DNA of 64,000 nucleotides from an uncultured bacterium. GTDB taxonomy: Bacteria; Verrucomicrobiota; Kiritimatiellia; RFP12; UBA1067. The stretch lies in the NCBI GenBank assembly GCA_902800055.1, contig CADCCW010000001.1, positions 14,932 through 78,931 on the forward strand, in the 5' to 3' direction. The notes under the pieces are model-generated. The model did not search any database. It saw only the letters and a list, made by a program, of their open reading frames with translations, and was not told the DNA's origin. This document shows, piece by piece, positions 25,130 through 47,415 of the stretch. Each line of letters starts with the position of its first letter. Positions within the stretch are counted from its first letter, which is position 1. The position numbers were made by a program, and so were the translations under genes.

Positions 25130-25144
25130 CTGACTTTGCCTCGA

Positions 25145-27286: not shown

Positions 27287-28616
27287 GGCCGCCTCCCCGC
27301 GCTTCGGCCGCGATTCGCGCGGCGTTCTTGTTCAGGTGGTCGAGAACGGCGAAGAAGATCATGAGGAGGATGAGGTTCATCTGCTGCCTGAGCACCCATT
27401 CGAGGCAGCTTTGCAGGTAGCAGGCGACAAGGCCGCCCGCAAGCCCCGCCGGTATCGCGGCGTATGGCGTGCCCTTCAGTTTCTTCACCAGCCGGCACGC
27501 GATGAGGAGGTAGTAGAAGAACCACACGAGCATCGCCGCGAGCGCGGGGATGCCGCACTCGGCGCCGACGAGCAGGTAGACGGTCTCGACGATGCCGTCG
27601 CGGAATTCCTCGTCGCGGTTGGGGTTGCGCCCGGCGCGCTCGGCGTATTCGTAGGGCGGGTTGATCTTGATGCCCCAGTTGTTGATGCCGACGCCGCGCC
27701 ACGGCTCGTCGGCCATCATCTCCTTGGCGCAGAGGGCCAGTTCCAGACGCGTGTTCTTCGACGCCTCCGGCGCGCTTTCGAAGCGCTCGATGATGCGCGG
27801 CAGCATGGCGGCGAGCCCGATGAAGCCGACGGCTGCGATCGGCAGGATCCGCATGAAGACACGGCGCTTCGGGACGTCGAGCCCGGCGAAGAACATGAGC
27901 GCGAAGGTGACCGCGAACGACGGGGGGATCATCGCGAGCGCGCCGCGGGAATACGTCCTAACGATGCAGGCGGACGCCGCTATGAACGCGAAAGTGTTCA
28001 GCAACGGCCCGCGCCAGCCCCGGGCGAGGAAGCAGGCGAAGAAGAGGTTGGCGAAGAGGTGCATCCCCATCGCCAGGCCGTTCTGGTGGGGAAAGACGCC
28101 GTGCGGCTGGTAGACGCCGGAGAAATGGTCCTTGACGATCAGCAGGAAGTTGAAGACCGCGAACACGGCAAGGCCCTTCATCAGCGACTTGACGTCGTCC
28201 GTGAGGCCGAGATACGCCCGGACGGAAAGATAGGTCATGTAGAGCATGATCATCTTCCAGATCTCCATCCACGCGAAGAGCTTGCTCTCGGCGGTCGACC
28301 AGGACGGCAGGCAGAGGAGGAAGTAGACGACGAAAAGCGCCGCGCCGACGGAGGGGACGAGCTTCGGCAGCCGGCGCTTGATCGCGGCCGTGATCAGCAT
28401 CGCGGCGGCGAAGAGGTAGATGACGCTCACCTCCATGCCGCGCGAAGTGCCGCGGTACCACTCGTTGGAGAAGAAGTTGATCGCCGTGGCCTGGTACGCC
28501 GCGAGCGCCGCGATCATCGCCCAGATCGCGTACTTCATCCACGAGCGGTTGAGCGAGATGATGAAGGCGAGCGGAGGCACGCCCATCATGGCTATGGCGA
28601 AGACCGCGTACTTCAT
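27279..28616 (-). CDS. wzy: O-antigen ligase / Wzy-type polysaccharide polymerase family membrane protein
   Basis: 445-aa polytopic membrane protein. A large loop (ERFESAPEASKNTRLELALCAKEMMADEPWRGVGINNW) precedes the last TM segments, as in Wzy_C/O-antigen-ligase proteins. Confidence 0.65.
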   Translation of the reverse strand: MKYAVFAIAMMGVPPLAFIISLNRSWMKYAIWAMIAALAAYQATAINFFSNEWYRGTSRGMEVSVIYLFAAAMLITAAIKRRLPKLVPSVGAALFVVYFLLCLPSWSTAESKLFAWMEIWKMIMLYMTYLSVRAYLGLTDDVKSLMKGLAVFAVFNFLLIVKDHFSGVYQPHGVFPHQNGLAMGMHLFANLFFACFLARGWRGPLLNTFAFIAASACIVRTYSRGALAMIPPSFAVTFALMFFAGLDVPKRRVFMRILPIAAVGFIGLAAMLPRIIERFESAPEASKNTRLELALCAKEMMADEPWRGVGINNWGIKINPPYEYAERAGRNPNRDEEFRDGIVETVYLLVGAECGIPALAAMLVWFFYYLLIACRLVKKLKGTPYAAIPAGLAGGLVACYLQSCLEWVLRQQMNLILLMIFFAVLDHLNKNAARIAAEARGGGHA

Positions 28617-28620
28617 GCCG

Positions 28621-29679
28621 TCAGTTGCTCGGGCTTAGGCCGACCGCGGAGGCCCGGCCGGCGACGAGGCTGAATATCTGCGCCGACGGCATGAGCTTGT
28701 TGACGAACACGTTGTACTCCGACATGGTGTCCTTCGGCACGTAGACGATGTCGCCGGCCTTGAGCGGGACGTTGCGGCACTTCCCGGCGAGGATTCCGTC
28801 CACGTCGACCTTGTAGAGCTTCGGGTGCGCGAGGCCGTCCCTGATTATGATGACATGGCTCCAGTGGGTGTCCTTCATCCACCCTGCCGCCGTAAGGGTC
28901 TCTATAAGCCCCATTCCGGCCTCGAACAGGCGCTTGTGCGGATTCTTGACCTCGCCGCAGATTATGACCGACGCCTCCATGCGCTGGGCGATGAACACGT
29001 AGTCGCCCTTGCGGACACGGATGTTGTGGAGCATGTCGCCCTTGCTGATCGCCTTGATGAAGTCCACCGGCAGCAGCTCGCCCTTCCGGACGAACAGCGA
29101 GTGCTCGAGGTCCGCGACATCGACGTCGACGCCGTTGAAGAGCCTTTCGGCACTCGACCCGGCCATCGCGTAGAAGTCGGCGAGGCGCGTCGAGTTCGAG
29201 ATGCCGTAGACCCCCGGCTTCGCGCAGGCGCCGGCGATCGTCGCCGTCTCGCTCTGCACGTCGAGGATGGTTATGCTCACGACCGGGTTCTTGACGTACG
29301 GGGCGAGCCCCTCGCGTATGCACTCGGAGCCCTGGGCGATCGTCTGCCCGCTCAGCTTCACCTGGCCCATGAACGCCATGCCGACCATTCCGTCCGGTCC
29401 GATGCGCGTCCTCATTCCGAGGTCTGGGTGGTCGTAGACGCGGATCTCGATCTGATCGCCGGCGTTCATGTGGTAGGCGGGCTCCTCCTCCATCTCGAGC
29501 TCCATGAGGCGCTTTCTGACCCGCGCCTCGTCCTCCGCCGTGCGTCCGCTCTCGTCGATCACGGCGTTGTCGTCGTCGGTGTTGGTGATCTCGAACACGT
29601 CGTTGTAGTTCGTCGTCATCCGGTCGAAGTAGCAGCCGGCCAGCAGCGCGGCGGCGAGGATCGCGGCGATTAGCTTCAC
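28621..29679 (-). CDS. wza: Polysaccharide export outer-membrane lipoprotein (Wza/OPX family)
   Basis: Lipobox MKLIAAILAAALLAGC. The Poly_export-like core reads YHMNAGDQIEIRVYDHPDL...IGPDGMVGMAFMGQVKLSGQT, and SLBB-like repeats follow (GACAKPGVYGI..., VPLKAGDIVYVP). Confidence 0.75.
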   Translation of the reverse strand: MKLIAAILAAALLAGCYFDRMTTNYNDVFEITNTDDDNAVIDESGRTAEDEARVRKRLMELEMEEEPAYHMNAGDQIEIRVYDHPDLGMRTRIGPDGMVGMAFMGQVKLSGQTIAQGSECIREGLAPYVKNPVVSITILDVQSETATIAGACAKPGVYGISNSTRLADFYAMAGSSAERLFNGVDVDVADLEHSLFVRKGELLPVDFIKAISKGDMLHNIRVRKGDYVFIAQRMEASVIICGEVKNPHKRLFEAGMGLIETLTAAGWMKDTHWSHVIIIRDGLAHPKLYKVDVDGILAGKCRNVPLKAGDIVYVPKDTMSEYNVFVNKLMPSAQIFSLVAGRASAVGLSPSN

Positions 29680-31646
29680 AGCCTGGCCTCCATTTCCCTT
29701 CTGACGGTCTTGACGTCGCCGCCGGATGCCATCGCCATGATCGCCTTGCCCGACTTGGCGACGTGCCGGCGCACGTAGCCGAACACCGAGCGCGGCGTCT
29801 GGCCGGCGCCGACGTGGAGGATGACGGCGTCGCAGAGCCCGAGCAGCTGGTCGAAGAAGGTGCCGCCGATGCGGACGCCGCCTTCCATCCTGACGAAGAT
29901 GTTGCCGTAGGAGTTCTTCAGCTCCGCGAGGTCCGCCTGCAGGATCTGCAGCTCCGTCGGAGCCATCGCGAACCGGTTGGCCGTCGGGAACCAGCCGTGC
30001 GCGCCGCTGCGCATGACGCCGATCATCTGCTCGGCGTCCTTGGGCGGGTCGAAGTTAGCGCTGGAGACGACGTCGAGCAGAAAGGAGTTCACGCCCGACA
30101 TTAGCGCGGTGGCGTCCACGGTGTGCGAGAAGTCCTCGCGGATTTCCACGCCGGGCAGCCGGCACACGAGCACGACGGGCGTCTTTTCGGCGGAAAGGAG
30201 CATCTTCAGCGCCACCACGCCCATGACCTCGCGGTCCTCGTCTTCCGGCATGGCTCCGGGAATCGGCAGCGAACCGAGGAACGAAATGGCGGGATACGCC
30301 TCGATCTCCCGTCCGCTGCGCACCTTGCCGAACACCAGCTCCAGCGCGACGACCCACAGCATGGCGACGAACAGGCACACCCCGGCGGCGCCGAGGGACA
30401 GGACGAGCTGCTTCGTGCCGAACGGACCCTTGTCGCTCGACCCGCCCGCGTGCTCGATCTGCCTGAGGTCGTTTTTCAGCGCGCCGGAGAGGTAGGTGAT
30501 GTTGCTGAGCTTCTCCTCCAGCTCGCGGATCGACGCGGCGATGTCCGACCGGTGCGTCTGGAGCCGCTCGTATTCGGGAATCAGCGCCGCCAGCTCCGCC
30601 GCGCGCTTGTCGTTGTCGGCAAGCTCCTGCTCCACCGCGCGGCGCTTTTCGGCGAGCGCGGACATGCGCGTGAGGCACTCGGCGAGCTCGCCGGCAGACT
30701 TCTCCAGCTGGTCGAGATCGTCGAGGTTCAGGTCCTCCACGCCCTTGGCCTTCAGGAACTCCTGCATCTCCCTGACGTACTTCTCGCGCTCCTCCAGCTT
30801 GCCCGCCACCTTCGGGTTGATGTCGGTGTACTTCTCGCGCAGCGACTTCAGCTCCTTTTCGACCGCCGCTATCGCCTCCGCGCGCTTGCGGATCGCCTGC
30901 GCATTCTCGGTGATCACGGTCCCGGCCGTGCCGACGATCTGCTCCAGCCGCTTCTTCTTCAGCTCCTCGTTCGCCAGCTCCACGCCGATGGCAGAAGCGT
31001 TCTTGCGCTGGTCGGACATGAGCGCGTTGATGGCGACAAGTGCGTCCTGCGGAGCCATGACGCTCGTCTTCGCCTTGAGCTTGGTCTCGGCGGCATCGAT
31101 CTCGGAAAGCTCCTCCAGGAGCTTCGCCTTGCGGTCCCGGATCGACGCGCCCCAGGCCTCGAGGTCTTTCGCGCGGTATGCCGCGTATTCGTTGATCAGC
31201 GCCTCGGCGTAGGCGTTCACCTTCTTGACCGCCCCCTTCCACGACTGCGACGCGGCGGTCAGGGTGAAGAGGTTGGTCGGCTTCTTCTCCTGCTTGATCG
31301 TAATGTCAAAGGCAAGGCACTCCTTCTCCGCCTGCGGCATGTCGACCTTGCTGGCGATACCGCGCTTGAGCGAGGCTCGGTCGAGAATGGACATAATCTG
31401 CTTGTCGTTGATGGTATCGATGTCCGCCACCTTCCGAGGATTGTAGAGGAGCCGCGTGGTCGCCGTGAAGCGACCGACGCTTTTCGCGCCCCTGAAGGTA
31501 AGATACGCGGCAAAAGCGCCAAAGAGAAAGACGAAAAGCAGCGCGAACAGCCACGCCCACTTGAGCACGATGACAAACACAACCTTCTGCAGCGTCATTA
31601 GCCGCTGCATCTGTTCGCGTTCATTCTCTGTCAGTTCTTCGCTCAA
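29676..31646 (-). CDS. Polysaccharide co-polymerase (Wzc/GumC-like) with degenerate C-terminal P-loop domain; TTG start
   Basis: Two TM segments flank a roughly 380-aa coiled-coil-rich periplasmic region (Wzz/PCP architecture). The C-terminal 200 aa occupy the BY-kinase position, but I see no GK[ST] Walker A and no Tyr cluster. The start is TTG 31646. Confidence 0.7.
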   Translation of the reverse strand: MSEELTENEREQMQRLMTLQKVVFVIVLKWAWLFALLFVFLFGAFAAYLTFRGAKSVGRFTATTRLLYNPRKVADIDTINDKQIMSILDRASLKRGIASKVDMPQAEKECLAFDITIKQEKKPTNLFTLTAASQSWKGAVKKVNAYAEALINEYAAYRAKDLEAWGASIRDRKAKLLEELSEIDAAETKLKAKTSVMAPQDALVAINALMSDQRKNASAIGVELANEELKKKRLEQIVGTAGTVITENAQAIRKRAEAIAAVEKELKSLREKYTDINPKVAGKLEEREKYVREMQEFLKAKGVEDLNLDDLDQLEKSAGELAECLTRMSALAEKRRAVEQELADNDKRAAELAALIPEYERLQTHRSDIAASIRELEEKLSNITYLSGALKNDLRQIEHAGGSSDKGPFGTKQLVLSLGAAGVCLFVAMLWVVALELVFGKVRSGREIEAYPAISFLGSLPIPGAMPEDEDREVMGVVALKMLLSAEKTPVVLVCRLPGVEIREDFSHTVDATALMSGVNSFLLDVVSSANFDPPKDAEQMIGVMRSGAHGWFPTANRFAMAPTELQILQADLAELKNSYGNIFVRMEGGVRIGGTFFDQLLGLCDAVILHVGAGQTPRSVFGYVRRHVAKSGKAIMAMASGGDVKTVRREMEARL

Positions 31647-31675
31647 GGGCGTGAGATGTCCTTATAATTCAGTGA

Positions 31676-31684
31676 ATTTTAGCA
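31676..31684 (-). promoter_or_regulatory. Extended -10 box TGCTAAAAT upstream of the wzc-like gene (29-nt leader)
   Basis: The minus strand reads ATATATGCTAAAATTCACTGAATTATAAGGACATCTCACGCCC-TTG. It overlaps the stop of the upstream GT4 gene. Confidence 0.35.
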
Positions 31685-32980
31685 TATATTGGTGTAGAAA
31701 TCAACCAGTCTGGCGGCGAGGACAGCCCAGTCGTACTCATGCGCGGCGGCAACCCCGGCAGCGGACATCTCCGCGCGCTCCGCGAAAGCCTTGTCGACCG
31801 CCGCGTCCAGCGCCGCCGCATCGCCGGGTGCGAACACCGCCGCCGCGCCTGGATGCGCCGCGCAGAGCCTCCCGAGCCCGCCCACGTCGCTTGCCGCCAC
31901 CGGCAGCCCCGCCGCCCAGGCCTCGAGGACGACGATGCCGAACGGCTCGTGGCGGCTCGCGAGCACAAAGACGTCGGCGTTCCGGTACTCTGCGAGCAGC
32001 TCGGGGCTGCCCGGCTTCAGCGCGCCGACGAACGCGACGCGATCTGAGACGCCTAGCTCGACGGCGCGGCGCTCGAGCTCCTCGCGGTAGTCGGGCTGGG
32101 TGACAGGGCCAACCAGGCGAAGCGCGCGCCCAGGATGGCGCGACAGATGCTCGACGAGCGCCAGCTGGTTTTTCTGGCGGTCGATCCGCGCGACGCATAG
32201 GAGCGTGGCGGAGCTCCCGGAGTTTCCGGTTTCCCCGGAGTTGCCGGCGAAGAGGCGCGTGTCCACACCATTGGGCAGAAACATCACATGCGGGTGCTTC
32301 GCGCGATAACGCTCGTATTCGTCCTCGCCCACGCAGACGATGCCGTCCGCGTCCTCGGGGATGCGGCGGACCCAGCCCATCGCATAGTCGACGAGCTTTC
32401 CCCACGGCAAACGTCCGCGGGTCGGGGCCTTCAGGCTCTTCGCCTCCGCCGTCGGCACGTTTGCTCCGCCGCCGTGGAGGGAGATAACGGTTTTTGGTTC
32501 GGTAGTTTGGTGGTTGGGTGGTTGGGTGGTTGAGTGGGCAACCCTAAGGCACAGTTCCGCGATGCGCGCCATCGCGTGGCAATGGATGACGTCCGGCTGC
32601 CATTCACGGAGCGCCTTGCCAAGTCCCGGCACAAACGGGTTTCCGCCCTTGCGGTCGAGCTCGGCGACAAGCTGCTTCGGCATCGGCCACCAGGGATAGA
32701 CCGGCCTGAAGCGGAGGATTTCAATACCGTCGACAGTCTCTGCGAATTGTCTGTTTTTCCAACACAAAGAACACAGAGAGCGCAAAGAGCGCAAAGCCCC
32801 CAAAAAGCCCTTTGTGTCCTTTGTGTTCTTTGTGTTAAAATCTTTCCACAGCGCAGTTGTAGCGAAGATGCGCACTTCGTGCCCCGCTTCCTGCTGGGCC
32901 TTGGCGAGGTTCCACACCACCTGCTCGGTGCCGCCCCAGTCGTCGAACGAGAGCCGCCTCAGGACGTGCGCGATTCTCAT
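31679..32980 (-). CDS. Family 4 glycosyltransferase carrying two in-frame repeat-cassette inserts
   Basis: MRIAHVLRRLSFDDWGGTEQVVWNLAKAQQEAGHEV N-terminus. The C-terminal half reads LLCVARIDRQKNQ..., ASRHEPFGIVVLEAWAAGLPVAASDVGG. The inserts NTKNTKDTKGFLGALRSLRSLCSLC and STTQPPNHQTTEPKT interrupt the N-terminal domain. Confidence 0.75.
   Translation of the reverse strand: MRIAHVLRRLSFDDWGGTEQVVWNLAKAQQEAGHEVRIFATTALWKDFNTKNTKDTKGFLGALRSLRSLCSLCWKNRQFAETVDGIEILRFRPVYPWWPMPKQLVAELDRKGGNPFVPGLGKALREWQPDVIHCHAMARIAELCLRVAHSTTQPPNHQTTEPKTVISLHGGGANVPTAEAKSLKAPTRGRLPWGKLVDYAMGWVRRIPEDADGIVCVGEDEYERYRAKHPHVMFLPNGVDTRLFAGNSGETGNSGSSATLLCVARIDRQKNQLALVEHLSRHPGRALRLVGPVTQPDYREELERRAVELGVSDRVAFVGALKPGSPELLAEYRNADVFVLASRHEPFGIVVLEAWAAGLPVAASDVGGLGRLCAAHPGAAAVFAPGDAAALDAAVDKAFAERAEMSAAGVAAAHEYDWAVLAARLVDFYTNIC
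32489..32537. repeat. 8-nt period array (GTTGGGTG-type, about 6 units) in frame inside the GT4 gene
   Basis: ggtttttg gttcggta gtttggtg gttgggtg gttgggtg gttgagtg gg. Translated on the minus strand it gives HSTTQPPNHQTTEPKT. Confidence 0.85.
32761..32836. repeat. 76-nt hairpin-forming cassette built from 9-nt units (CACAAAG / CTTTGTG arms), in frame inside the GT4 gene
   Basis: AACACAAAGAACACA (32761-32775) is the exact reverse complement of TGTGTTCTTTGTGTT (32822-32836). The interior AGCGCAAAG x2 ... CCTTTGTGT continues the imperfect pairing. Translated it gives NTKNTKDTKGFLGALRSLRSLCSLC. Confidence 0.9.
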
Positions 32981-35841
32981 CTTCCCTCCATCGACAACGC
33001 CTCGGCAAGGCTGGCTTTTGTTATCGGCTTGAGGAGAAGGCTGTCAAACCCGATCTCCGCGAACTTCGCCCGGAACTCCACATCCGCCGTGACGACGACA
33101 ACGCGCATGTCTGAAAGCGCGGGATCGGCCCGGATGGCCTTTACGAGCCCCGAACCGTCGAGCCGCGGCATCCACATGTCCGTGAGCACCAGGTCGAACC
33201 GTCCCGCCGCCGGCGACCTGAGGACCTCGAGCGCCTCCTGTCCGTCCCCGGCCGAGACGACCTCGAACTTTCCGAGGTTCTTGAGCTGCGCCTTGAGGAC
33301 CATGATGTTCATCTTCGAATCGTCCACGATCAGGATGCGGCGGGGGGAGCCCGACTCGGACGCCGGATGGACCGGCGCGACATGCGCGGGCATGCCATCG
33401 GCATTCAGCCCTTCGGCCTCGCACGTCTTCACTCCCGGTATCGTTACCGAGAACGTCGAGCCCTTCCCGAGTTCCGATTCGACGTTGAGTCTCCCGCCCA
33501 TCGCCGCGGAAAGCTGCTTGCAGATCGCAAGGCCGAGCCCCGTCCCCCCGTTGCGCGACAGCTTGGAGCCGACCTGGACGTAGGCTGAGCCGATGCGCGC
33601 GAGGTCCTCCTTGCTTATGCCGCATCCAGTGTCCGCCACCTCGATGCGCAGCGTGCCCGACTGCTCGTCCGCCCTCACGAACGACGCGTATATCTCGACA
33701 TAGCCATCGTGGGTGAACTTGACGGCATTGCCGACGAGGTTGAACAACATCTGTCGGATTCGCTGCGGATCGACCATCATCGGGGGCATCTCGTCGACAC
33801 GGCACCGGACTTCGATTCCGGCTTTCCCGCTCGCAACCTTAAAGGCGTCGGTCACCTCGCGCAGCAGCTTCGTGCAGTCAGTCGGCTCCGGCAGTATCTC
33901 CATCTTGCCGGACTCGAGCTTGGAAAGATCCAGGACATCGTTGACGAGCCCGAGGAGAGTCTTGCCGCTGGCGATGATGGCGTCTTCCGCCTGGACGCGC
34001 TCCGCCTCGGTGCTGAAGCCCGACTTCAGCATCTCAGAGAACCCGATTATCGCGTTGAGCGGCGTCCTGATGTCGTGGCTCACGGTCGAGAAGAAATAGC
34101 TCTTGGCCTTCGCCTTCTCCTTCTCCATATCGAGCTCGCGCCGGCGGAAGAGCATGTATACGGCGATCATCAGCACGAGCGCGAGGACGGTAAGGACGCT
34201 CTGCACGTCGCTGTTCCGGATTATCGTCTCGCGGACGACCTGCAGGTCGCGGCGGAGGCGGCCGTGCCAAGACTTCTCGCGGGCGATCCCGACCTCGTCT
34301 TCTGCGCCGGCCCGGCGGAAGACCTCGCCGTGGCTTTCCACGATGCCACAGTACGCCCGGCGCACGGTCTCGCCCGCCGTCTGGCGCGCCCAGACGTGCG
34401 AAAGCGCCACGATCACCAGGAAAAGCGAGACCCACACGACCGAGGAACGCCCGAACCGATGCGATTCGTCCCGGTGGAACGCGAACAGGAAGAACACGAG
34501 TCCCGCGATGCACAACAGCACCAGCGCGAGATACGAAACCGTCCCCATCGAAACCGAAAAGGCGGGAAGGAGGAAAAGTACCGCTATCGCGGCGGAGAAG
34601 AGAAGTCCGACTATCCCGGTGGCCGCAGAGACGCGGTCGCCTTCGCCTTTCGCCAGCTTGAAGGCGGCGGCGGACGTGTAGGCGTACGCCACCGCCGTGC
34701 CGACGAGCGCGACGTCGACTATGATGTCGACCACGGTCAGGCCAAGGGTAGACGATGCGACGGCGACGGCGGCAATGACGAACCCGGCGTTCCTCGCTGA
34801 AAGCGCACCCTTCTCCCTGCCGAGCCAGAGCGGCATCGCCCCGTCGTCCGCCATCGCCGCGAGAAGCCTGCTGGCGACGATAGTGTTCCCCAGGAGATTG
34901 GTGAACAGGGAGCAAAGAAGCGTAATCGCGAGCACCGCCAGTCCCGCTCCGCCGAGGACGCCCTTGACCATGTCGAAGGCGCGGAAGTTCGCGTTGCCAG
35001 ACTGCGAGACCGCGGCGGACCATCCCGCGCCGTCGCCACCCGCCGCCAGAACCGGGATCAGCATGGCCATGACATACGCGGCGACGGACGCGGCGATTGC
35101 CGCCACCATTATCCAGAAGGACCTCCGGACCGGAAACCGGAACTCCGCGGATATGCAGGATATGGATTCGATCCCCACGAAAAGCCAGGGGGAGATCATG
35201 AGTATGCCGAGGATCTGGACAAGGGGCGGGCCGCCGGAGGGGGAGAAGAACGGACGCATCGACGCGAGCCCCCCCTCGTTGCACGCCACTGCGGCTCCGA
35301 AGCAGGCGACCAGCCCCGCAGCCAAGACCAGGGCTGCCGCGATCTGCACCGCCGCCGCGACCCGCCGCCTGGCAATGAGCGCGGCGACGATGCCCATGGC
35401 CACCGTTACCATGGCTATGTCGCCAAGGCAGACCCTGAACCCGGCGACATGGTACTTGAATCCGAAATGAAGCGGATTTCCCCCGAGCAGATAGCGGACG
35501 ATGACGGTAAGCATCTCCGCATCGGCCCAGACTATCGCCGCGTAGGCGAGGCACAGAAACCATCCGCAGATGTATCCGTGGTCGTGCCCGAACGCCTTTT
35601 TCGCGTAGGAATACACCCCGCCGGGACCGGGACACTTCACCATCATGTAATGGAAATTCCACGCGATCACCACCATGGCGAGCGCGGCGACGGCAAGACC
35701 CAGAACCGTTCCGGCTGGACCGGCCTTGGGCAGAAACCCCGTCAAAGGCAGGGAAAGCACGTCCCAGCCCACGGCGCACCCGAACGCAACCGCCCATGCC
35801 CCCAGCGCGGAGAAATGGGCAAGACCACTCCTGTTGTTCAT
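32977..35841 (-). CDS. Hybrid sensor histidine kinase with N-terminal APC-superfamily amino-acid-permease domain (APC-HisKA-HATPase-REC)
   Basis: Residues ~1-480 are a 12-TM permease-like domain. FSALGAWAVAFGCAVGWDVL...AGPAGTVLG...FHYMMVKCPGPGGVYSYAKKAFG matches the APC N-terminal signature. Then the H-box FFSTVSHDIRTPLNAIIGFSEML, N/G boxes FNLVGNAVKF and DTGCGI...GTGLGLAICK, and a receiver ILIVDDS...DLVLTDMWMPRLDG...KP. Confidence 0.85.
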   Translation of the reverse strand: MNNRSGLAHFSALGAWAVAFGCAVGWDVLSLPLTGFLPKAGPAGTVLGLAVAALAMVVIAWNFHYMMVKCPGPGGVYSYAKKAFGHDHGYICGWFLCLAYAAIVWADAEMLTVIVRYLLGGNPLHFGFKYHVAGFRVCLGDIAMVTVAMGIVAALIARRRVAAAVQIAAALVLAAGLVACFGAAVACNEGGLASMRPFFSPSGGPPLVQILGILMISPWLFVGIESISCISAEFRFPVRRSFWIMVAAIAASVAAYVMAMLIPVLAAGGDGAGWSAAVSQSGNANFRAFDMVKGVLGGAGLAVLAITLLCSLFTNLLGNTIVASRLLAAMADDGAMPLWLGREKGALSARNAGFVIAAVAVASSTLGLTVVDIIVDVALVGTAVAYAYTSAAAFKLAKGEGDRVSAATGIVGLLFSAAIAVLFLLPAFSVSMGTVSYLALVLLCIAGLVFFLFAFHRDESHRFGRSSVVWVSLFLVIVALSHVWARQTAGETVRRAYCGIVESHGEVFRRAGAEDEVGIAREKSWHGRLRRDLQVVRETIIRNSDVQSVLTVLALVLMIAVYMLFRRRELDMEKEKAKAKSYFFSTVSHDIRTPLNAIIGFSEMLKSGFSTEAERVQAEDAIIASGKTLLGLVNDVLDLSKLESGKMEILPEPTDCTKLLREVTDAFKVASGKAGIEVRCRVDEMPPMMVDPQRIRQMLFNLVGNAVKFTHDGYVEIYASFVRADEQSGTLRIEVADTGCGISKEDLARIGSAYVQVGSKLSRNGGTGLGLAICKQLSAAMGGRLNVESELGKGSTFSVTIPGVKTCEAEGLNADGMPAHVAPVHPASESGSPRRILIVDDSKMNIMVLKAQLKNLGKFEVVSAGDGQEALEVLRSPAAGRFDLVLTDMWMPRLDGSGLVKAIRADPALSDMRVVVVTADVEFRAKFAEIGFDSLLLKPITKASLAEALSMEGR

Positions 35842-37830
35842 TTACCTGTAGCCTCCTATCAAAGAACGAAACGACAGCCACGAGTATTTCACGAGGCCGT
35901 AGGCGTAGCGACGCCACAGACGGCCAGGCTCCTGGACGATGCGGTACACCCACTCGAGGCCCGTCTTCTGCATCCACTTGGGCGCGCGCTTCACGCGGCC
36001 GGCGAGAAAGTTGAACGTGCCGCCGACGCCAATCATCGCGCCGACGTCAAGCTTCGCCTTGTTGCGGCCCATCCACAGTTCCTGCTTGGGGTTGCCGAGC
36101 GCGACGAAGAGGATGTCTGGCTTCGCGGCGTTGATGCGCTCGACGATCTCGGGCTGTGGCTCGTCCAGCTTCACGAAGGCCGGGTCGATGCCGGCAACTC
36201 TCAACCCGCAACTCTCAACTCCAAACTTCCCGAACGCCTCTTCGACCGCGTCCATGTCGCCGCCCAGCACATACACCGACAACCCCTCCTCCGCGCATCG
36301 GCGCAGAATCGCCGGCACCATGTCCGCCCCGGTGACGCGCTCCGGCAGCGGCTGGCGCAGAATCCGCGAGAGCGCGACGATCGGCATGCCGTCGGCGGTG
36401 ACGAGGTCGGCGTCCTTCAGGTAGCCCCAGAGCTCGTCGTTGCCGCCGAACGGCCAGCCGCTCACGGCGTTGGCGACGAAGTCGACGTTGAGCGTAGCGA
36501 CGACGAATGGGGAACGGGGAACGGGGAACGGGGAATGGTGTTGCCGCGCCATCGCGATGATGCGCTCCACCGCCTCGGACTCGGTCACCTTCGCGACCGG
36601 GATCCCGAAAAGGCGAGAAACGCCTCGCTCCCTCAACAGCTCCACAATCCCCTTCGCATGGTCTTCCCAGGAGAAGCGCTTGATCCACTCGAACCCGCGT
36701 TTTATCCGTGCCTCGCGCTCCGCGGCGAATTCATCGAGGAGCCGCGCAAGCGCCGCGGCGATTTCGTCGACGCTCTCGGGATCGAAGGTGAGCGCGACGT
36801 CCCCCGCGATCTCGCCCAGGGATCCGTTGTTCGAGCAGGCGCACGGGATACCCTGCGCCATTGCCTCAATGAGCGAAAGCCCGAAGCCCTCGAAGAGGCT
36901 GGGGAAGACGTAGAAACCGGCCTCTGACCAGAGCCGCTCCAGTTCCGCGGCGGGGACGAATCCGACAAAGCGGATGAACTCGGCGTGCGGCGAGGCGGCG
37001 GCGGCGGCGTGGACCGCCTCGGCGTCCTTCCAGTCCGCGCCGGCGAGGACGAGCGGATGCGCCGCGGCGGTTTCGCGCGGCAGGCGCGAATACGCCTCGA
37101 TGAGCCGCACGTGGTTCTTGCCCGGATGCTCGATGCGGGAGATGTAGAGGATGGCGGAGGAAGAAGGGATATTAGCGATCGAAGAGGTAGAAGCGATAGC
37201 TCGCTCGCCCTCAACACCCCTTTTATCCTTTTGATCACTTTCATCCCTTCCCCTTGAAAGCCCATTATACAGCACCGTCACCTGGTCCGCGCGGCAGTGC
37301 CAGAACTTCACCATGTCGTCCCTGGTGGCGCCGCTCACCGCGACGAGGTGCCGCGCCTTCTTCGCGTAGTGGGGGAGGACATGCGCGAGGTAGAACATCC
37401 TGAGGCGCGAGTACTTGCCGGGGATGTGGAAATTCGCGAGGTCATGCACCGTCGCCGCCGTCGGCAGCGGGTAGAACGCGCAGACGCGGCGGTTGGCGGC
37501 GCAGATGAAGAAGCCGTCGAAGTCGCCGCGGTGCCGGCGGATCCAGAACGGCAGCACGAAGAGGTGCCAGAGCATCGACAGCGCCGGACGCCGCGTCCAG
37601 CGCGGGGCGGAAATCGATGGTATCTGACATGGGACATCAGACGCGAGACGAGAGGTTTTCCCGCGTCTATCGTCTAGCGTCTCACGCCCAAGACGGAGTT
37701 CTTCTCCCGGTTCGCAAAGGAGCGTCAGTTCGTGGCCCTGCGCCGCGAGCTCGCGCACGACCTCGCGCACGTAGACCGAAATGCCGCTCTTGCCGCCGTC
37801 GTAGGGGACGCATGAGACGAGCAGTCTCAC
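35842..37830 (-). CDS. Bifunctional glycosyltransferase: GT4 domain fused to WecG/TagA/CpsF (GT26) domain; GTG start
   Basis: GTG 37830 forms a GTGA overlap with the upstream kinase stop. The N-terminal half is GT4 (ISRIEHPGKNH..., PSLFEGFGLSLIEAMAQGIPCACSNNGSL). The C-terminal half is GT26 (ATLNVDFVANA..., ADLVTADGMPIV..., ILFVALGNPKQELW..., IGVGGTFNFLAG...RAPKWMQKTGLEWVYRI). Two repeat inserts are present. Confidence 0.8.
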   Translation of the reverse strand: MRLLVSCVPYDGGKSGISVYVREVVRELAAQGHELTLLCEPGEELRLGRETLDDRRGKTSRLASDVPCQIPSISAPRWTRRPALSMLWHLFVLPFWIRRHRGDFDGFFICAANRRVCAFYPLPTAATVHDLANFHIPGKYSRLRMFYLAHVLPHYAKKARHLVAVSGATRDDMVKFWHCRADQVTVLYNGLSRGRDESDQKDKRGVEGERAIASTSSIANIPSSSAILYISRIEHPGKNHVRLIEAYSRLPRETAAAHPLVLAGADWKDAEAVHAAAAASPHAEFIRFVGFVPAAELERLWSEAGFYVFPSLFEGFGLSLIEAMAQGIPCACSNNGSLGEIAGDVALTFDPESVDEIAAALARLLDEFAAEREARIKRGFEWIKRFSWEDHAKGIVELLRERGVSRLFGIPVAKVTESEAVERIIAMARQHHSPFPVPRSPFVVATLNVDFVANAVSGWPFGGNDELWGYLKDADLVTADGMPIVALSRILRQPLPERVTGADMVPAILRRCAEEGLSVYVLGGDMDAVEEAFGKFGVESCGLRVAGIDPAFVKLDEPQPEIVERINAAKPDILFVALGNPKQELWMGRNKAKLDVGAMIGVGGTFNFLAGRVKRAPKWMQKTGLEWVYRIVQEPGRLWRRYAYGLVKYSWLSFRSLIGGYR
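36509..36538. repeat. GGGGAAY heptamer array (GGGGAAC x3, GGGGAAT) in frame at the GT4/GT26 domain junction
   Basis: gaatGGGGAACGGGGAACGGGGAACGGGGAATGGtg on the plus strand. Translated on the minus strand it gives HHSPFPVPRSPFVV. Confidence 0.9.
37158..37254. repeat. AT-richer low-complexity insert ending in a 9-nt period array (CCTTTTATC CTTTTGATC ACTTTCATC CCTTCCCCT) inside the GT4 domain
   Basis: Read directly from the sequence. Translated on the minus strand it gives GRDESDQKDKRGVEGERAIASTSSIANIPSSS, lying between the two Rossmann halves of the GT4 domain. Confidence 0.7.
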
Positions 37831-40800
37831 GATGCCGCCACCTCCCCGAAGAGGGCGCGGAGCTTGTCGCCCGTCACCGGCTTCGAGATCACCTTCGCGA
37901 ACAGGCTCATGTCGTAGGTGGAGCCGACGTCGACGTCGGCGGTCACGGCGACAACCGGGATCTCGGCGAGCCTGCGGTCCTTGCGCATCGCCTCGGCGAG
38001 CTGGGTGCCATCCATCTTCGGCATCCACATGTCGGTCAGCACGAGGTCGGGGATCCACTCGCTCATCACCTCGAGGGCGCGCTCGCCGTTCTCGGCGTAG
38101 CGGATGTCCTTGATCTTCAGGTTGCCGAGGTGGATGCCGAGGATCTTGCGGTTCATCGTCATGTCGTCGACGACCAGCACCCGGTCGGGCATGACGGCGC
38201 GGATCGTCTGCTCGGCGGCGCGCGGTATCATGGAGATGTTCTGGACGAGCACGAGGTCGGGGATGTCGATAACGAAGGTCGTGCCCTTGCCGAGCTCGCT
38301 TCTCGCCGTGATCGTGCCGCCGGCGTTGTCGACCATGCGCTTGACGATCGGCAGCCCGAGCCCGGTGCCCTTGATCTCGCCGGCGCTCGACTGCATGCGG
38401 CTGCGGATGTCCTGGATGAACGGGTCGAAGAGCCGGTCCATCTTGTCCCGCGAGATGCCGCAGCCGGTGTCGCTGACCTCGAGGTGGAGGTTGCACCTCG
38501 CGCCGTCCCACGCCGCCCGGACCACGATCTCGCCGTGCTCGGTGAACTTCGCGGCGTTGCCGACGAGGTTGATGAGGATCTGGCGGACGCCCTGCTGCGC
38601 CAGTTCGACGATCGGCAGCTGGTCGGCCGGCGGGGCCTCGATGCGGAGCTTCACGCCGTGGCGGCGGACGCGGTAGCCGAATATCGCCGGCAGCTCCCTG
38701 AGGAGCTGGCCGATGTCGCAGACGCCGGAGCGCATCTGCATCGCGCCGGCCTCGAGCTTGGAGAGGTCGAGGATGTCGTTGATGAGGTCAAGGAGCGCGT
38801 TGGAGCTGAGGAGGATGCCATCGATGTAATCCTTGCGCTTGGCTTCGTCGAGATCGGGAGCGGACATGAACTCGGCGAAGCCGATGACCGCGTTGAGCGG
38901 GGTCCTGAGCTCGTGAGACATCATCGCGAGGAACCTGGTCTTGGCCTGCGCGTGATCCTCGGCGATCGCGGCCGCCCTGTTCGCGCGCTTCGTCTGCTTG
39001 ACGAGGAGCGCTATCATGACGGCGCCGAATATTACGGCGACCAGCAGGATCACGAATACGGTGACCGCAATCCTGCGAATCAGCTCCTCCCGCGTCAGCC
39101 CGAACACGCGGTGGACGACCTGGCGTTCGGCGGCGTCGGCCATGAACATCTCCTGGAACTGGGTCTGGTCGATGCCGGTCATCACCTTGTTGAGGATCGA
39201 GACAAGCTCCTTGGGGACGTTCGGGCGCGCGAACATCTCGAACTCCTGGTACATGTCCTCGGCACCGAGCTCCTGCGCGATGCTCTGCGGGACGGGGACC
39301 GCGAATACGGACTTGGCGCCGTAGGTCGCGGCGGACGCCTTCACCGGATAGGGAATCCACAGGTCGGTGTCGCCGCGCAGAAACTTGGCCTCCGCCGTGC
39401 TTATGTCGGACTGCTTCGCGAGCGAGAACTTGAGTCCCGTCCGTACGCCGAGCTCTTCAAGGAGGTCGGCGACGAACCCGGCGGGCTTGCCGTCGGCGTC
39501 AAAGAGCGGGAACGGCCACGGCGAGAAGTCGATCATCACCGGGCTGTCGTTCTTCTGGCGGCGGTTGAGCCATCTCGACTCCTCCAACGAGAGCGCCGCC
39601 ATGTCGCTGCGCCTGCCGTAGTGGTGCTCGCTGATCATTCGGAGGTACTTCGGGAAGTCGTCGCAGATCTCGTCCATCGCCTTCTCAAGCTCCTCGAAGA
39701 GATCCTTTCGTCCAAGCGAGGTGCAGATGTACATCGGGTGCGAGGCGTAGAGGTGCAGCGCCTTCTCGTCCTTGAGTTCCGGCATTTCGACGTCCACGCA
39801 TGCGTCGACGTCGCCGCGGAAATAGGCGGAGAGCATGTCGCGGTCGGACGAGAACTCGACGCACGAGATGGACTCGTCGCTCTCAAACTGGCGGCGGGCG
39901 CGCTGCGAGCTGATGGTGCTGGCGAGGAGGCCCACCTTCATGCCGTGCCAGGTCTCTGGCTCGCCGGGCATGTAGGGGCTGTTGGGACGCGCCCAGAGGT
40001 ACACGCGCAGCATGCCCATCGGCGTGTGCGGGTAGTAGAACTGTTCGCGCCGCTGGGCGGCGAAGCCGATGCCGCCCACGATGTCGAGCCTGTTCTTCAT
40101 CACGTCCGCAAGGCTCTCGTCGTAGTCGCCGTAGACATAGTCTATCGTCCAGTGGGTGTGGCCGACGATGGACTTGATCCAGACCTCGAGCGCGCCGGAG
40201 CGCTCGCCGTCCGGCGTCACCTCGAAGAGGTCGCCGCGGCTGTACGCGGCTACGCGCACGCGCTTCTGCGGCTTCGAGACGCCGAGGAACTTCTCGCGCC
40301 ATTCGTCGTACTTGTCGATGTGCGCGATGTAGCACTCGCGATACGCCTTGGAGAGCTTCTTCAGGAGCTGCGGACGGCGCTTGTTGACCGCGAAGTAGAC
40401 GTTGCGCGAGCCGATCGGCACCACCTCCACGACACCCTCCGGCCGCTTGCCGAACGGAGTGTAGAGGAAGAGCGCGTCGATCTCGCCGTCGTGCAGCGCC
40501 TGCACGGCGCCGGCGCTCGTCGGGATCTCGACGTAGGTCGGCGAAAGGCGCGCTTGCTCGAAGTACCTGATGCGGTCGTTGTTGGAGATCTGACCCTGCG
40601 AAACCGGAGAGTAGCCGATGCGCATCCGCGGCCACTCGGTGATCTTGGTGGACATGAGCTCCATCGCGCGCGACGGCGTCGCGTAGAGGGCGAAATGCAT
40701 GCGCCCGAGCGGCTGCCGGGGGAAGTCGAAGTTCTCCAGCAGCTTCTTCGTGCGGAACGCGGAGCAGATGACGTCCGCGTTGGTGACGTCGGCCAGGTGG

Positions 40801-41021
40801 TCGTCGCCGAACCCGATGTTCTCGGTCTCGACGCCGGCGGTCTGGAACACGTCGTTCATTATCGACACGCAGAAGTCGTTGTCGGCGGCAGCCCAGAAGT
40901 CGAGCTTAGGGTCGCGCTCGCAGTCCGCCACCTTCACCGTCTCGGCCGTGGCCGCGAACGCCGCAAGCAGCGCGAGAGCGAAACTTGCCGCCATAGAAGC
41001 GCTAGAAATTTTCTTCATCAT
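37827..41021 (-). CDS. Hybrid sensor histidine kinase with large periplasmic solute-binding-protein-like sensor (SBP modules-TM-HisKA-HATPase-REC)
   Basis: Signal peptide, then about 640 aa of periplasmic region with repeated PBP/SBP_bac_3-like segments (MRIGYSPVS..., VRVAAYSRGDLFE..., VMIDFSPWPFPLFDADGKPAGFVADLL). Then a TM segment, the H-box MMSHELRTPLNAVIGFAEF, LVGNAAKFT, DTGCGI...GTGLGLPIVK, and a receiver VLVVDDM...DLVLTDMWMPKMDG. Confidence 0.85.
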   Translation of the reverse strand: MMKKISSASMAASFALALLAAFAATAETVKVADCERDPKLDFWAAADNDFCVSIMNDVFQTAGVETENIGFGDDHLADVTNADVICSAFRTKKLLENFDFPRQPLGRMHFALYATPSRAMELMSTKITEWPRMRIGYSPVSQGQISNNDRIRYFEQARLSPTYVEIPTSAGAVQALHDGEIDALFLYTPFGKRPEGVVEVVPIGSRNVYFAVNKRRPQLLKKLSKAYRECYIAHIDKYDEWREKFLGVSKPQKRVRVAAYSRGDLFEVTPDGERSGALEVWIKSIVGHTHWTIDYVYGDYDESLADVMKNRLDIVGGIGFAAQRREQFYYPHTPMGMLRVYLWARPNSPYMPGEPETWHGMKVGLLASTISSQRARRQFESDESISCVEFSSDRDMLSAYFRGDVDACVDVEMPELKDEKALHLYASHPMYICTSLGRKDLFEELEKAMDEICDDFPKYLRMISEHHYGRRSDMAALSLEESRWLNRRQKNDSPVMIDFSPWPFPLFDADGKPAGFVADLLEELGVRTGLKFSLAKQSDISTAEAKFLRGDTDLWIPYPVKASAATYGAKSVFAVPVPQSIAQELGAEDMYQEFEMFARPNVPKELVSILNKVMTGIDQTQFQEMFMADAAERQVVHRVFGLTREELIRRIAVTVFVILLVAVIFGAVMIALLVKQTKRANRAAAIAEDHAQAKTRFLAMMSHELRTPLNAVIGFAEFMSAPDLDEAKRKDYIDGILLSSNALLDLINDILDLSKLEAGAMQMRSGVCDIGQLLRELPAIFGYRVRRHGVKLRIEAPPADQLPIVELAQQGVRQILINLVGNAAKFTEHGEIVVRAAWDGARCNLHLEVSDTGCGISRDKMDRLFDPFIQDIRSRMQSSAGEIKGTGLGLPIVKRMVDNAGGTITARSELGKGTTFVIDIPDLVLVQNISMIPRAAEQTIRAVMPDRVLVVDDMTMNRKILGIHLGNLKIKDIRYAENGERALEVMSEWIPDLVLTDMWMPKMDGTQLAEAMRKDRRLAEIPVVAVTADVDVGSTYDMSLFAKVISKPVTGDKLRALFGEVAAS

Positions 41022-41041: not shown

Positions 41042-41368
41042 TTAGCTGAACTTCGCGTCTGCCACCGTGGGCACGATCTCGAAGACGCGGCTCACCTTGG
41101 TGATGTCGAAGACGATTTTCGGTCCGGGCTGGAGCGCCGCCAGCACCACCTTGCCGCCGCCGGCCTTCGCCTTCTGCAGCACCTGCACCAGCACGCCGAG
41201 GCCGCTCGAGTCGATGTGCACCATGTTCGAGAGGTCGAAGAGCACGTTCGTGCCTTCAGTCATCCTGCTGGTCACTTCCTCGCGCAAAGCCGGCGCGACC
41301 GCCGCGACCAGGCGCCCCTCGATCGCCACGTTGAGGATATTGTCCTTTTCCTTGATTTCCCAACCCAT
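41042..41368 (-). CDS. STAS-domain anti-sigma-factor antagonist (SpoIIAA/RsbV/HsbA-like)
   Basis: 108 aa. LNVAIEGRLVAAVAPALREEV...VLFDLSNMVHIDSSGLGVLVQVLQKAKAGGGKVVLAALQPGPKIVFDITKV contains the conserved phosphorylatable D-S-S-G-L motif. A good AAGGAG Shine-Dalgarno lies upstream. Confidence 0.85.
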   Translation of the reverse strand: MGWEIKEKDNILNVAIEGRLVAAVAPALREEVTSRMTEGTNVLFDLSNMVHIDSSGLGVLVQVLQKAKAGGGKVVLAALQPGPKIVFDITKVSRVFEIVPTVADAKFS

Positions 41369-42404: not shown

Positions 42405-42704
42405 TCAGAGGCCAACGGTTACGAAGAAGGCGTCGAGGGCCTCGTGCGCGTAGCGGCACGCGCCCGCCGGACCCGGATAGGCCGAGACCATCTTGTGGTA
42501 GTTCCAGCCGATGACGGCCATCGCAAGCACGCCTACGGCCACACCGACGACCGTGCCGAGCGGACCGGCCAGAGGCAGAAACTCCGCGCCGGGCATGACG
42601 AACGCGCCCCAGCCGACGGCGAAGCCGAACGAAAGCCCCCACGCCGAAAGCATCGAAAGATGCTTCCCGGTTCCGCCGGCATTATCCTTGTCGGTTCCGC
42701 TCAT
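42405..42704 (-). pseudogene. Remnant: first ~99 codons of an APC-permease (sensor-kinase-type) gene
   Basis: From Met 42704, MSGTDKDNAGGTGKHLSMLSAWGLSFGFAVGWGAFVMPGAEFLPLAGPLGTVVGVAVGVLAMAVIGWNYHKMVSAYPGPAGACRYAHEAL is collinear with the N-terminus of the APC-kinase at 32977..35841 (FSALGAWAVAFGCAVGWDVLSLPLTGFLPKAGPAGTVLGLAVAALAMVVIAWNFHYMMVKCPGPGGVYSYAKKAF). It stops after about two TM helices. Confidence 0.6.
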
Positions 42705-42714
42705 CGTCCCATGC

Positions 42715-47413: not shown

Positions 47414-47415
47414 AT

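Follow-up and report, generated by a model that had tools for sequence, protein, structure and literature searches.

Covalent transporter-kinase fusions and transceptors are considered rare among prokaryotes (PMC11109136, PMC13022988), and studies of the mechanism of such fusions have been devoted almost entirely to the SSS-type CbrA. In the SLC5(SSS)-STAC-PAS kinases CbrA, CrbS and MxtR, a secondary-transporter domain of the LeuT fold is fused to the N-terminal side of a histidine kinase. The SSS/SLC5 domain of CbrA itself has the LeuT fold and belongs to the APC superfamily (PMC13022988; PMC8617281), and the core helices of CbrA-type proteins form the ligand pocket where they are broken (PMC13022988). 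In this study, we analysed a 64,000-nucleotide stretch (hereafter the window, whose coordinates are used throughout) from an uncultured bacterium of the Kiritimatiellia (contig CADCCW010000001.1, positions 14,932 to 78,931). The gene at 32977..35841 on the minus strand encodes a hybrid histidine kinase with a permease-like sensor of the APC family, referred to as APC-HK. Its arrangement resembles that of CbrA, but it matches Pfam AA_permease and AA_permease_2 (Transporter Classification (TC) 2.A.3-like, nearest to AdiC and CAT) and not SSS (PF00474), and has 12 + 2 transmembrane (TM) segments, whereas the CbrA type has 13. Instead of a STAC/PAS linker, it uses two extra TM segments and a periplasmic hairpin to couple the sensor straight into the DHp domain. 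It is also a hybrid kinase with a receiver (REC), which would feed a putative Hpt relay, whereas CbrA uses a CbrB-type NtrC regulator. The APC-family fusions add a second branch, independent of CbrA, to the transporter-kinase fusions.

APC-superfamily folds are likewise used as nutrient receptors in GerAB and in the eukaryotic Ssy1 and SLC38A9, and yeast Ssy1/Gap1 are a further precedent. GerAB is a Spore_permease family protein that signals non-covalently in a GerAA/AB/AC complex, whereas the module of APC-HK is covalently fused to signalling enzymes; no Spore_permease match was found in APC-HK by Pfam, and no Ger genes were found in the locus. The specificity of GerAB-type proteins is set by pocket residues on TM1, TM3, TM6 and TM8 (PMC8617281). 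For LysP-CadC, DctA-DcuS and BceAB-BceS, it was reported that the conformation or occupancy of a transporter is read by a membrane signalling protein via TM contacts, LysP being an APC-family permease (PMC3096576; PMC11109136). These pairs are separate polypeptides, whereas APC-HK combines a 'trigger transporter' and a two-TM kinase in a single chain and so resembles a Rosetta-stone fusion of such a pair. A transporter or channel fold also serves as the input for a kinase or a diguanylate cyclase in the Amt-histidine kinases and in Sd-Amt1 (Amt-HAMP-GGDEF) (PMC11152129), but the fold is unrelated (Amt/Mep/Rh trimer versus LeuT) and the Amt sensors have a HAMP linker. The general concept of a transporter-fold sensor on a kinase thus already has precedents in CbrA and the Amt-kinases. 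An earlier annotation of the window from its letters and reading frames (the sequence-only reading) knew of no characterised APC-fold equivalent of the SSS/SLC5-kinase fusions. As a statement on the superfamily this is imprecise, the CbrA SSS domain being a member, but for the APC family proper (TC 2.A.3/Pfam AA_permease) the fusion to a kinase is apparently uncharacterised. No description of an APC-family permease domain fused to HisKA or GGDEF was found in the open-access literature, which is no proof of absence.

The APC-HK open reading frame (ORF) comprises 954 uninterrupted codons. GT4-WecG, the gene upstream, ends directly at the APC-HK ATG, and the stop codon of APC-HK and the start of the next gene, GT4, overlap; APC-HK is therefore an internal member of a long minus-strand operon. 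Five Pfam domains were found, all above the gathering threshold (GA): AA_permease_2 (58.7 bits, GA 27; residues 15-427, profile positions 6-403 of 427), AA_permease (52.7 bits, GA 24.6), HisKA (66.2 bits, residues 579-645), HATPase_c (99 bits, residues 691-802) and Response_reg (70.6 bits, residues 836-949). The hydropathy plot showed 12 TM segments before about residue 457 and two more at ~466-485 and ~546-565, with a polar stretch of ~60 residues separating TM13 and TM14. These results, together with the family comparison and the model described below, confirmed that APC-HK is a complete hybrid kinase, with an APC-family permease-like domain, two extra TM segments and a HisKA-HATPase-REC core.

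On the minus strand, the 12-TM permease-like input domain (residues 1-457) occupies 34471..35841, with support from Pfam, PDB profile matches, Foldseek, invariant columns and the co-variation of D27 and D107. It is followed at 34144..34470 by residues 458-566, in which hydropathy, the model and conservation located an RFG[RK]S linker, TM13 (~466-485), a periplasmic hairpin (486-545) and TM14 (546-565). The DHp/HisKA domain (residues 567-645; 33907..34143; Pfam, motif check and model) contains the phospho-acceptor H589, and the HATPase_c domain lies at 33436..33771 and the receiver domain at 32995..33336 (both Pfam and motif check). The sequence-only reading had described a 12-TM APC permease-type sensor and a HisKA-HATPase-REC core in a single gene, and both were borne out; its quoted motifs AFGCAVGW, AGPAGTVLG and KCPGPGGVYSYAKKAFG are all present. 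Of the two further TM helices and the coiled coil by which it linked these parts, the helices were found, but the coiled coil corresponds to the periplasmic helical hairpin between TM13 and TM14 and not to a cytoplasmic linker after TM14.

An AlphaFold2 model of the APC-HK monomer was built on 45 homologues, with a mean predicted local distance difference test (pLDDT) score of 76.9 and values of mostly 80-94 in the TM core; it agreed with hydropathy on the 12 + 2 TM topology. When searched against the PDB with Foldseek, the N-terminal half of the model matched AdiC (3ob6_A) with a target-normalised TM-score of 0.84 and a root-mean-square deviation of 3.9 Å over ~460 columns. Target-normalised TM-scores of the permease-like part were 0.79 for BasC and 0.76-0.77 for GkApcT, and the sequence identity to these AdiC/BasC/GkApcT-type matches was 16-18%. 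The C-terminal half matched HK853 (0.78) and ShkA. In a single-sequence search of PDB sequences, the cationic amino-acid transporter CAT1 was the sole match, and a weak one. A full-length family profile was dominated by kinase and CheY matches, and it was replaced by a permease-only profile (alignment A2). This profile retrieved only APC-family transporters, namely AdiC (1e-7), CAT1 (2e-7), CAT4 and LAT2, and the alignments covered TM1 to TM10. The APC-type fold proposed by the sequence-only reading was therefore recovered by structure as well, and the gating and pocket residues proved to be conserved.

LeuT-fold transporters bind their substrate at the break of TM1. In the model of APC-HK, TM1 is broken at residues 24-26; G21 and G25 are invariant in the family, and the break region reads G25-W26-D27. 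The second glycine of the TM1 G-[S/T/A]-G motif (AdiC G27) is an invariant Asp in one subtype of the family, termed type D, and is kept in the other, type G, and in the wider family. In the TM6 motif W219-x-F-x-G223-x-E225, the family shows no variation at W219, F221 and G223, and the conservation of E225 reaches at least 90%. Hidden Markov model (HMM) alignment placed W219, G223, E225 and Y386 at the AdiC gate and pocket residues W202, G206, E208 and Y365, respectively, and N319 at AdiC W293. N315, N319 and T320 in TM8 are invariant, as is Y386 in TM10, which also contains D376. Being invariant or nearly so, the pocket and gate residues of the permease-like domain appear to be under selection. 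AdiC, CAT (SLC7A1/GkApcT) and BasC, the best profile and structural matches, share with APC-HK the 12-TM 5+5 fold, the TM6 W-x-F-x-G-x-E motif, the TM10 Tyr gate and the Gly-rich TM1. APC-HK differs from them in that the TM1 G-S-G becomes G-W/S-D and in its 500-aa signalling extension, and its transport is only putative. Among the NCBIfam subfamilies, TIGR00905 (basic amino acid/polyamine antiporter) scored best for the sensor domain, but its 54.2 bits are far from the cut-off of 409, and the domain is a divergent clade of its own within the APC family.

In the model, TM13 lies within a helix of residues 467-512, which is followed by a turn and a single unbroken helix (518-607) formed by the return arm of the hairpin, TM14 and the first DHp helix, so that TM14 runs directly into HisKA/DHp. 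No HAMP, PAS or STAC domain was found between the permease-like domain and DHp, either by Pfam or in the model. Basic residues flank the cytoplasmic ends of TM13 and TM14, and the cytoplasmic TM12-TM13 connector carries an invariant R462-F-G464-R-S466 motif. R462, G464, S466, W470, W484 and W525 in the linker region are invariant in the APC-HK family, and the RFGxS..VW motif persists even in very distant relatives with other outputs. A motif check showed that the kinase catalytic residues (H589, N701/N705, D737-G739-G741 and G766-G768-G770) and the receiver quintet (D840, D841, D888, T918 and K938) are all present and family-invariant. No Hpt domain was detected by Pfam within APC-HK itself.

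A cluster search with residues 1-560 of APC-HK returned 192 clusters at 90% identity, the top 120 of which were considered. Almost all of these 120 were 946-977 aa long and had the same five Pfam domains, with 47-99% identity to APC-HK; the few that carried a name were called 'amino acid permease [Kiritimatiellae bacterium]'. The nearest cluster alone contained 187 member sequences, and the assemblies behind the clusters came from ENA, NCBI, JGI and Logan. In a scan of GTDB species representatives 45 loci were found, nearly all in ruminant-gut metagenome-assembled genomes (MAGs) from the RUG and RGIG series that are assigned to Kiritimatiellae or carry the older names Lentisphaerae/Verrucomicrobia. 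APC-HK was 99% identical to a gene in the rumen MAG RUG10963. The fusion is a conserved family of more than 100 independent clusters and not an artefact. The sequence-only reading had seen no frameshift or stop in the gene, and this agrees with the recurrence of the same architecture in those 90%-identity clusters; the APC-HisKA protein is not a one-off but a member of a large family.

The module was also found with outputs other than the kinase. In two Clostridia MAGs of the GTDB scan, a module 31-32% identical to that of APC-HK was fused to GGDEF in place of the kinase, and these proteins were collinear with APC-HK through TM12, RFG[RK]S, TM13, the hairpin and TM14. An exhaustive phmmer search with residues 1-560 against 1.84 billion 50%-identity representatives gave 1172 matches at E ≤ 1e-3 and 221 at E ≤ 1e-30, whose lengths grouped at ~450-510, 700-800, 930-1000 and 1100-1440 aa. 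Pfam scanning of 48 of these representatives found AA_permease_2 in 47 of them. The outputs were HATPase_c (19/48), HisKA (16/48), REC (14/48), GGDEF (11/48), EAL (4/48), HD/HD_5 (3/48), SpoIIE, PAS_4 and Hpt (2/48 each), and Guanylate_cyc, LytS-type His_kinase and ATPgrasp_TupA (1/48 each). The APC-PP2C, APC-cyclase and APC-LytS-kinase architectures were borne out by per-protein scans. For the APC-GGDEF form alone, a threshold of E ≤ 1e-20 gave at least 1450 90%-identity clusters; they came from gut Bacillota MAGs, including Lachnospiraceae, and had been automatically named 'amino acid permease' or 'diguanylate cyclase'. The module, in many cases together with TM13-hairpin-TM14, is joined to at least seven kinds of output domain; the presence of many unrelated cytoplasmic signalling enzymes on one membrane module therefore indicates a genuine signal-input domain, and argues strongly against an inert anchor.

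The family is thus one of hundreds of 50%-identity clusters and more than 1000 90%-identity clusters with many output types. Because of the automatic name 'amino acid permease', transport inventories over-count these proteins and signalling censuses miss them. One stand-alone member, P0225 (473 aa; three members on 3-3.7 kb contigs), was apparently genuine, and several '500-aa' representatives were truncated fusions. Individual members showed further variations. P0246 joins the APC-like module to a TupA-like ATP-grasp enzyme and is a non-signalling fusion, P0229 is a fusion to a class III nucleotidyl cyclase, and in P0264 HisKA begins at residue 483, right after TM12, with no TM13/14. In Christensenella sp. 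UBA4379 (L046, 7712-18121), the APC-GGDEF gene was flanked by a REC-GGDEF-EAL gene and two large PAS hybrid kinases, each with two receivers, in a neighbourhood dense in cyclic di-GMP (c-di-GMP) and two-component genes.

Comparison of the modules revealed the two subtypes mentioned above. The TM1 of type D, to which APC-HK belongs, reads FGCAVG[W/S]D, and that of type G reads FGTAVGWG, which was also observed in the Clostridial proteins and in almost all distant relatives. In Kiritimatiellae the two types are frequently arranged in tandem, a type G gene followed by a type D gene behind one Hpt, as in loci L003, L015, L016, L018, L020, L024-L026 and L033. When 33 type D and 13 type G non-redundant modules were compared over 580 residues, only four columns separated the two groups. 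L448/F and L557/I were conservative, and the non-conservative columns were D27 versus Gly in TM1 and D107 versus Asn in TM3, both with 100% conservation inside each group. Across the wider family, Asn in TM3 does not vary and Gly in TM1 is at least 90% conserved, indicating that type D is derived and gained two membrane-embedded carboxylates together.

By HMM alignment, D27 corresponds to AdiC G27, and D107 to the G100/N101 turn in TM3 of AdiC, or to M104 when a 4-residue gap is removed. In AdiC, the backbone of G27 contacts the α-carboxylate of the substrate, and the positions aligned to D27 and D107 presumably lie on the pocket-lining face. In monoamine transporters, the residue corresponding to LeuT Gly24 is replaced by Asp, and D27 might follow the same logic. 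In view of the two extra pocket carboxylates and by analogy, the ligand of type D would most likely be positively charged and without a carboxylate, such as a biogenic amine or a diamine, and the two Asp residues would argue against an ordinary zwitterionic amino acid. Alternatively, the D27/D107 pair might form a cation or proton site. TM3 residues were also reported to set specificity in GkApcT and GerAB (PMC8617281). With AdiC, GkApcT and BasC as good templates and a natural two-residue switch, the family offers a useful system for the conversion of a rocking-bundle transporter into a receptor.

For the signalling route behind APC-HK, the closest described counterpart is the HptB-HsbR-HsbA system of Pseudomonas, the parts of which work as a phosphorelay and partner switch in P. 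aeruginosa (PMC5085249). There, phospho-HptB turns HsbR from a kinase into a phosphatase and HsbA chooses its partner according to its phosphorylation state, which affects biofilm and exopolysaccharide (PMC5085249, PMC6482189). The window contains the same parts list, namely Hpt-less hybrid kinases, a lone Hpt, a REC-PP2C-kinase protein and a phosphoserine STAS protein, all encoded on the minus strand. The HsbR-like REC-SpoIIE(PP2C)-HATPase_c_2 regulator at 48438..50120 (Pfam REC 51, SpoIIE 97.7 and HATPase_c_2 51.2 bits; synteny) is the putative terminal acceptor of the relay. The stand-alone Hpt at 48133..48441 (102 aa, motif AHTVKGNA; Pfam Hpt 29.4 bits, GA 24.6; synteny) is the candidate relay partner, and the HsbA-like STAS antagonist at 41042..41368 carries a DSSGLG phosphoserine motif (Pfam STAS 77 bits; TIGR00377 64.7 bits, cut-off 53.45). 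Different from Pseudomonas, the Kiritimatiellota genes sit in a Wzx/Wzy exopolysaccharide (EPS) operon and not in a flagellar region, no counterpart of FlgM or HsbD was identified, and the sensors of the input kinases are APC-like, SBP-type and 7-TM.

The SBP-type kinase, a conserved neighbour and probable co-input, is a BvgS-like hybrid histidine kinase of SBP_bac_3 type at 37827..41021 (Pfam, synteny). Its solute-binding nature was indicated by one Pfam SBP_bac_3 match, above threshold but partial; its periplasmic region gave marginal matches to the VFT domains of BvgS in the PDB (E ~0.01) and no NCBIfam match. It is separated from APC-HK by the GT4-WecG fusion glycosyltransferase gene at 35842..37824 (start approximate; Pfam, 704-aa orthologue in L001). 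Downstream of APC-HK and in the same direction lie Wzx/Wzy-type genes at 23582..32980, comprising GT4, PCP/Wzc-like, Wza, Wzy, GH9 and Wzx (Pfam, synteny). The placement in an EPS locus and the adjacent SBP-type hybrid kinase are hence as the sequence-only reading described them. Two 7-TM hybrid histidine kinases of 621 aa (42715-44580) and 611 aa (44588-46423) were recognised by Pfam further upstream. The core of the SBP-type kinase is 38% identical to that of APC-HK, and the cores of the 7-TM kinases 44-45%. The four hybrid-kinase cores of the window are paralogous (36-66% identity) and none has its own Hpt; their paralogy is consistent with a common Hpt partner.

Several observations were made on the genes around the 7-TM kinases. 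The cores of these two kinases are 66% identical and their ~220-aa 7-TM N-terminal domains, which had no Pfam or NCBIfam match, 43% identical. A related 607-aa kinase divergently adjoins Hpt in L003 and L016. A 116-aa ORF at 42405..42755 on the minus strand (FGFAVGWG), which overlaps the 3' end of the 621-aa kinase gene, is 49% identical to residues ~8-85 of APC-HK (TM1-TM2 and the PGPxG box) and ends after TM2; it appears to be the truncated relic of another permease-kinase gene, one of type G. The closest genomes, L004 (RUG10963) and L005 (RUG11534), lack the ~4.3-kb insertion made up of the 7-TM kinases and the relic. The remaining minus-strand genes of this region, as placed by gene order, are a priming sugar transferase (47416-48132), a protein of ~310 aa without any match (~46484-47416, its ORF ending at 46484; orthologue of a 309-aa gene in L001) and a 318-aa protein with a faint NTP_transf_2 match only (41387-42343, also placed by synteny). 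Both the 318-aa and the ~310-aa proteins are syntenic with the Hpt, STAS and kinase genes across the loci of context A described below, and they are candidates for partner-switch targets.

The gene context was compared by tblastn across 48 fetched loci. In context A (~17 loci, with sensor identity down to 43%), the order REC-PP2C, Hpt, sugar transferase, 318-aa gene, STAS, SBP-kinase, GT4-WecG, APC-HK, GT4, PCP, Wza, Wzy was found. In context B (~12 loci, such as L003), one or two APC-HKs directly follow Hpt, the SBP-kinase is present in some cases, and EPS genes are lacking. Hpt was located within 10 kb upstream of APC-HK, often directly adjacent, in 18 of the 23 loci having at least 9 kb of upstream sequence, and orthologous Hpt genes are present in L001 and L003. 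This frequency makes the APC-HK-Hpt pair the tightest association, whereas the EPS linkage is conserved but lineage-specific. The most conserved partners of APC-HK are therefore the stand-alone Hpt and, in many loci, the SBP-type hybrid kinase, rather than the EPS genes. The suggestion in the sequence-only reading that nutrient or amino-acid flux may be read out to control polysaccharide production is, in both its parts, a hypothesis.

Taken as a whole, the observations are probably best explained by a sensor kinase with an APC-family (AdiC/CAT-like) LeuT-fold input, an Hpt relay, a partner switch and tuning of EPS. The fold, the fusion, the intact catalytic machinery, the subtype switch, the synteny and the use of the module with many outputs are shown directly by the data, and we infer the rest of the mechanism. 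A small ligand would occupy the canonical pocket, to which TM3, TM8 and TM10 contribute besides the unwound TM1 and TM6, and would shift the rocking-bundle equilibrium of the permease-like domain. The RFG[RK]S linker would read this shift together with TM13-hairpin-TM14. In a dimer, TM13-hairpin-TM14 would assemble into a four-helix TM bundle, as in a classical two-TM kinase, and, being continuous with the DHp helix, would set the kinase/phosphatase balance. The phosphoryl group would be transferred from H589 to D888, to the stand-alone Hpt and then to the REC of the REC-PP2C-kinase protein. The SBP-type kinase would feed the same Hpt, and the two 7-TM hybrid kinases probably do so as well. 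The REC-PP2C-kinase protein would set the phosphorylation state of STAS, as in the partner switch of Pseudomonas, and this state would act through a further target to tune the co-transcribed Wzx/Wzy EPS pathway in this genome. We lean towards the permease-like domain being a receptor that keeps its conformational cycle, for which net transport would not be needed. With such a mechanism, the abundant rumen Kiritimatiellae and gut Lachnospiraceae would sense small nitrogen compounds directly and thereby control exopolysaccharide and c-di-GMP behaviour.

Several points weigh against this explanation or parts of it. The ligand class is read from sequence only: none of the curated APC functional subfamilies (APA, CAT, AAT, EAT) was reached, all scores being far under the NCBIfam cut-offs, and a look-up of 10 diverse representatives gave no curated name on the clusters. 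The placement of D107 in the pocket and its distance from D27 depend on the HMM alignment to AdiC with its 4-residue gap in TM3, and the dimer bundle goes beyond a monomer model. Phosphotransfer to this Hpt and not to an unlinked partner was assigned from synteny only. No sigma or anti-sigma factor, HsbD-like gene or other STAS target was recognised in the window, and the lack of EPS genes in the context B loci indicates that EPS control does not extend to the family as a whole.

The retained alternating-access gates of AdiC (W219, E225 and Y386) also suit a true transceptor in the CbrA sense, that is, a working APC transporter for uptake or antiport of an amino acid or amine, the kinase of which reports flux or turnover and not occupancy. 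The complete 12-TM fold with high model confidence and the apparently genuine stand-alone clade member P0225 point in the same direction, and the LeuT-fold domain of CbrA both transports and signals (PMC13022988). We nevertheless regard this as a possible but rather unlikely alternative to a receptor. The second TM1 glycine, at the AdiC contact for the substrate carboxylate, is replaced by Asp in type D; the module is mostly fused to signalling outputs, truncated fusions accounting for several of the '500-aa' representatives; and the scores fall far under all the curated transporter subfamily cut-offs. GerAB moreover sets a precedent for APC-fold proteins as pure receptors (PMC8617281). Beyond the receptor interpretation, a still more speculative extension, which we consider unlikely in its entirety, is that the 12(+2)-TM module is a major unnamed class of bacterial input domains with a role like MASE or 5TMR, by which gut anaerobes would read nitrogen compounds at a transporter-type pocket. 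The type G/type D tandem behind one Hpt would then allow Kiritimatiellae to sense an amino acid and its decarboxylated amine (arginine/agmatine, lysine/cadaverine or ornithine/putrescine), the ratio of which would feed a partner-switch decision on capsule or EPS. If the amino acid/amine reading is true, the substitutions of Gly by Asp in TM1 and of Asn by Asp in TM3 would suffice to reprogram the charge specificity for the ligand.

The conservation pattern makes it improbable that the permease-like domain is a degenerate, ligand-free membrane scaffold, with the stimulus sensed by the TM13-TM14 hairpin or through a heteromer with the SBP-type kinase. Within the family, conservation centres on the pocket and gate motifs of TM1, TM3, TM6, TM8 and TM10, and it extends across distant output fusions (G24, G28, W29, G30, N110, P220, W221 and F226 in the numbering of alignment A4). 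The difference between types D and G consists of exactly two polar residues in the pocket region, which would be hard to explain for an inert anchor. It is true that TM13-hairpin-TM14 is similar to the minimal sensor found in classical two-TM histidine kinases, that the hairpin region holds the invariant W484 and W525, and that the SBP-type kinase is a conserved neighbour in many loci; the Bacillota GGDEF forms, however, have the module without an adjacent SBP-kinase. A reverse logic, in which the kinase and receiver regulate a bona fide transporter that, for instance, imports a substrate for polysaccharide decoration, would suit a gene embedded among glycosyltransferase and export genes, and a non-signalling fusion in the clade (APC-ATPgrasp_TupA, P0246) fits with it. 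It appears very improbable, since the module is also found on GGDEF, EAL, HD-GYP, PP2C and cyclase outputs whose products act in trans, the full downstream relay (Hpt, REC-PP2C-kinase and STAS) is conserved alongside, and the continuity of TM14 with the DHp helix is the usual sensor-to-kinase arrangement. The merging of a permease gene and a kinase gene by a sequencing or assembly error or a strain-specific frameshift, the chance of which is negligible, was ruled out by the uninterrupted ORF, the more than 100 clusters from independent assemblies and the 45 species-level genomes.

The EPS locus (23582-48132) was found to be a mosaic relative to L004 and L005. APC-HK, PCP and the sugar transferase are 96-99% identical, and other genes are more diverged: 80% for GT4-WecG, 78% for the 318-aa gene and 83-89% for GT4, with Wza 77% identical in L004 and 99% in L005. 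These uneven identities suggest recombination within the polysaccharide locus. GT4-WecG combines Glyco_transf_4, Glycos_transf_1 and a WecG/TagA transferase in one gene and lies between the two kinases in all context A loci. A GH9 gene with a CelD_N Ig-like domain (25145-27286, minus strand) lies between Wzy and Wzx, at the same place as in the context A loci L001, L004, L005, L008, L036 and L042, and the enzyme may trim the EPS polymer. Tyrosine recombinase/integrase genes, one of them with a C-terminal SHOCT domain, were observed at 12800-13705 (minus strand) and 14425-15909 (plus strand), upstream of the polysaccharide region. The G+C content falls to 0.59-0.60 at 2001-6000, compared with ~0.65-0.69 elsewhere in the window, and the recombinases and this dip may mark a mobile-element boundary. 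Polysaccharide-modification genes beside the locus encode a pyruvyl transferase (16734-17885), a nitroreductase-family protein (17882-19108) and an FGE-sulfatase/SUMF1-like protein (19419-20252), the last of which fits the sulfated-glycan lifestyle of Kiritimatiellae.

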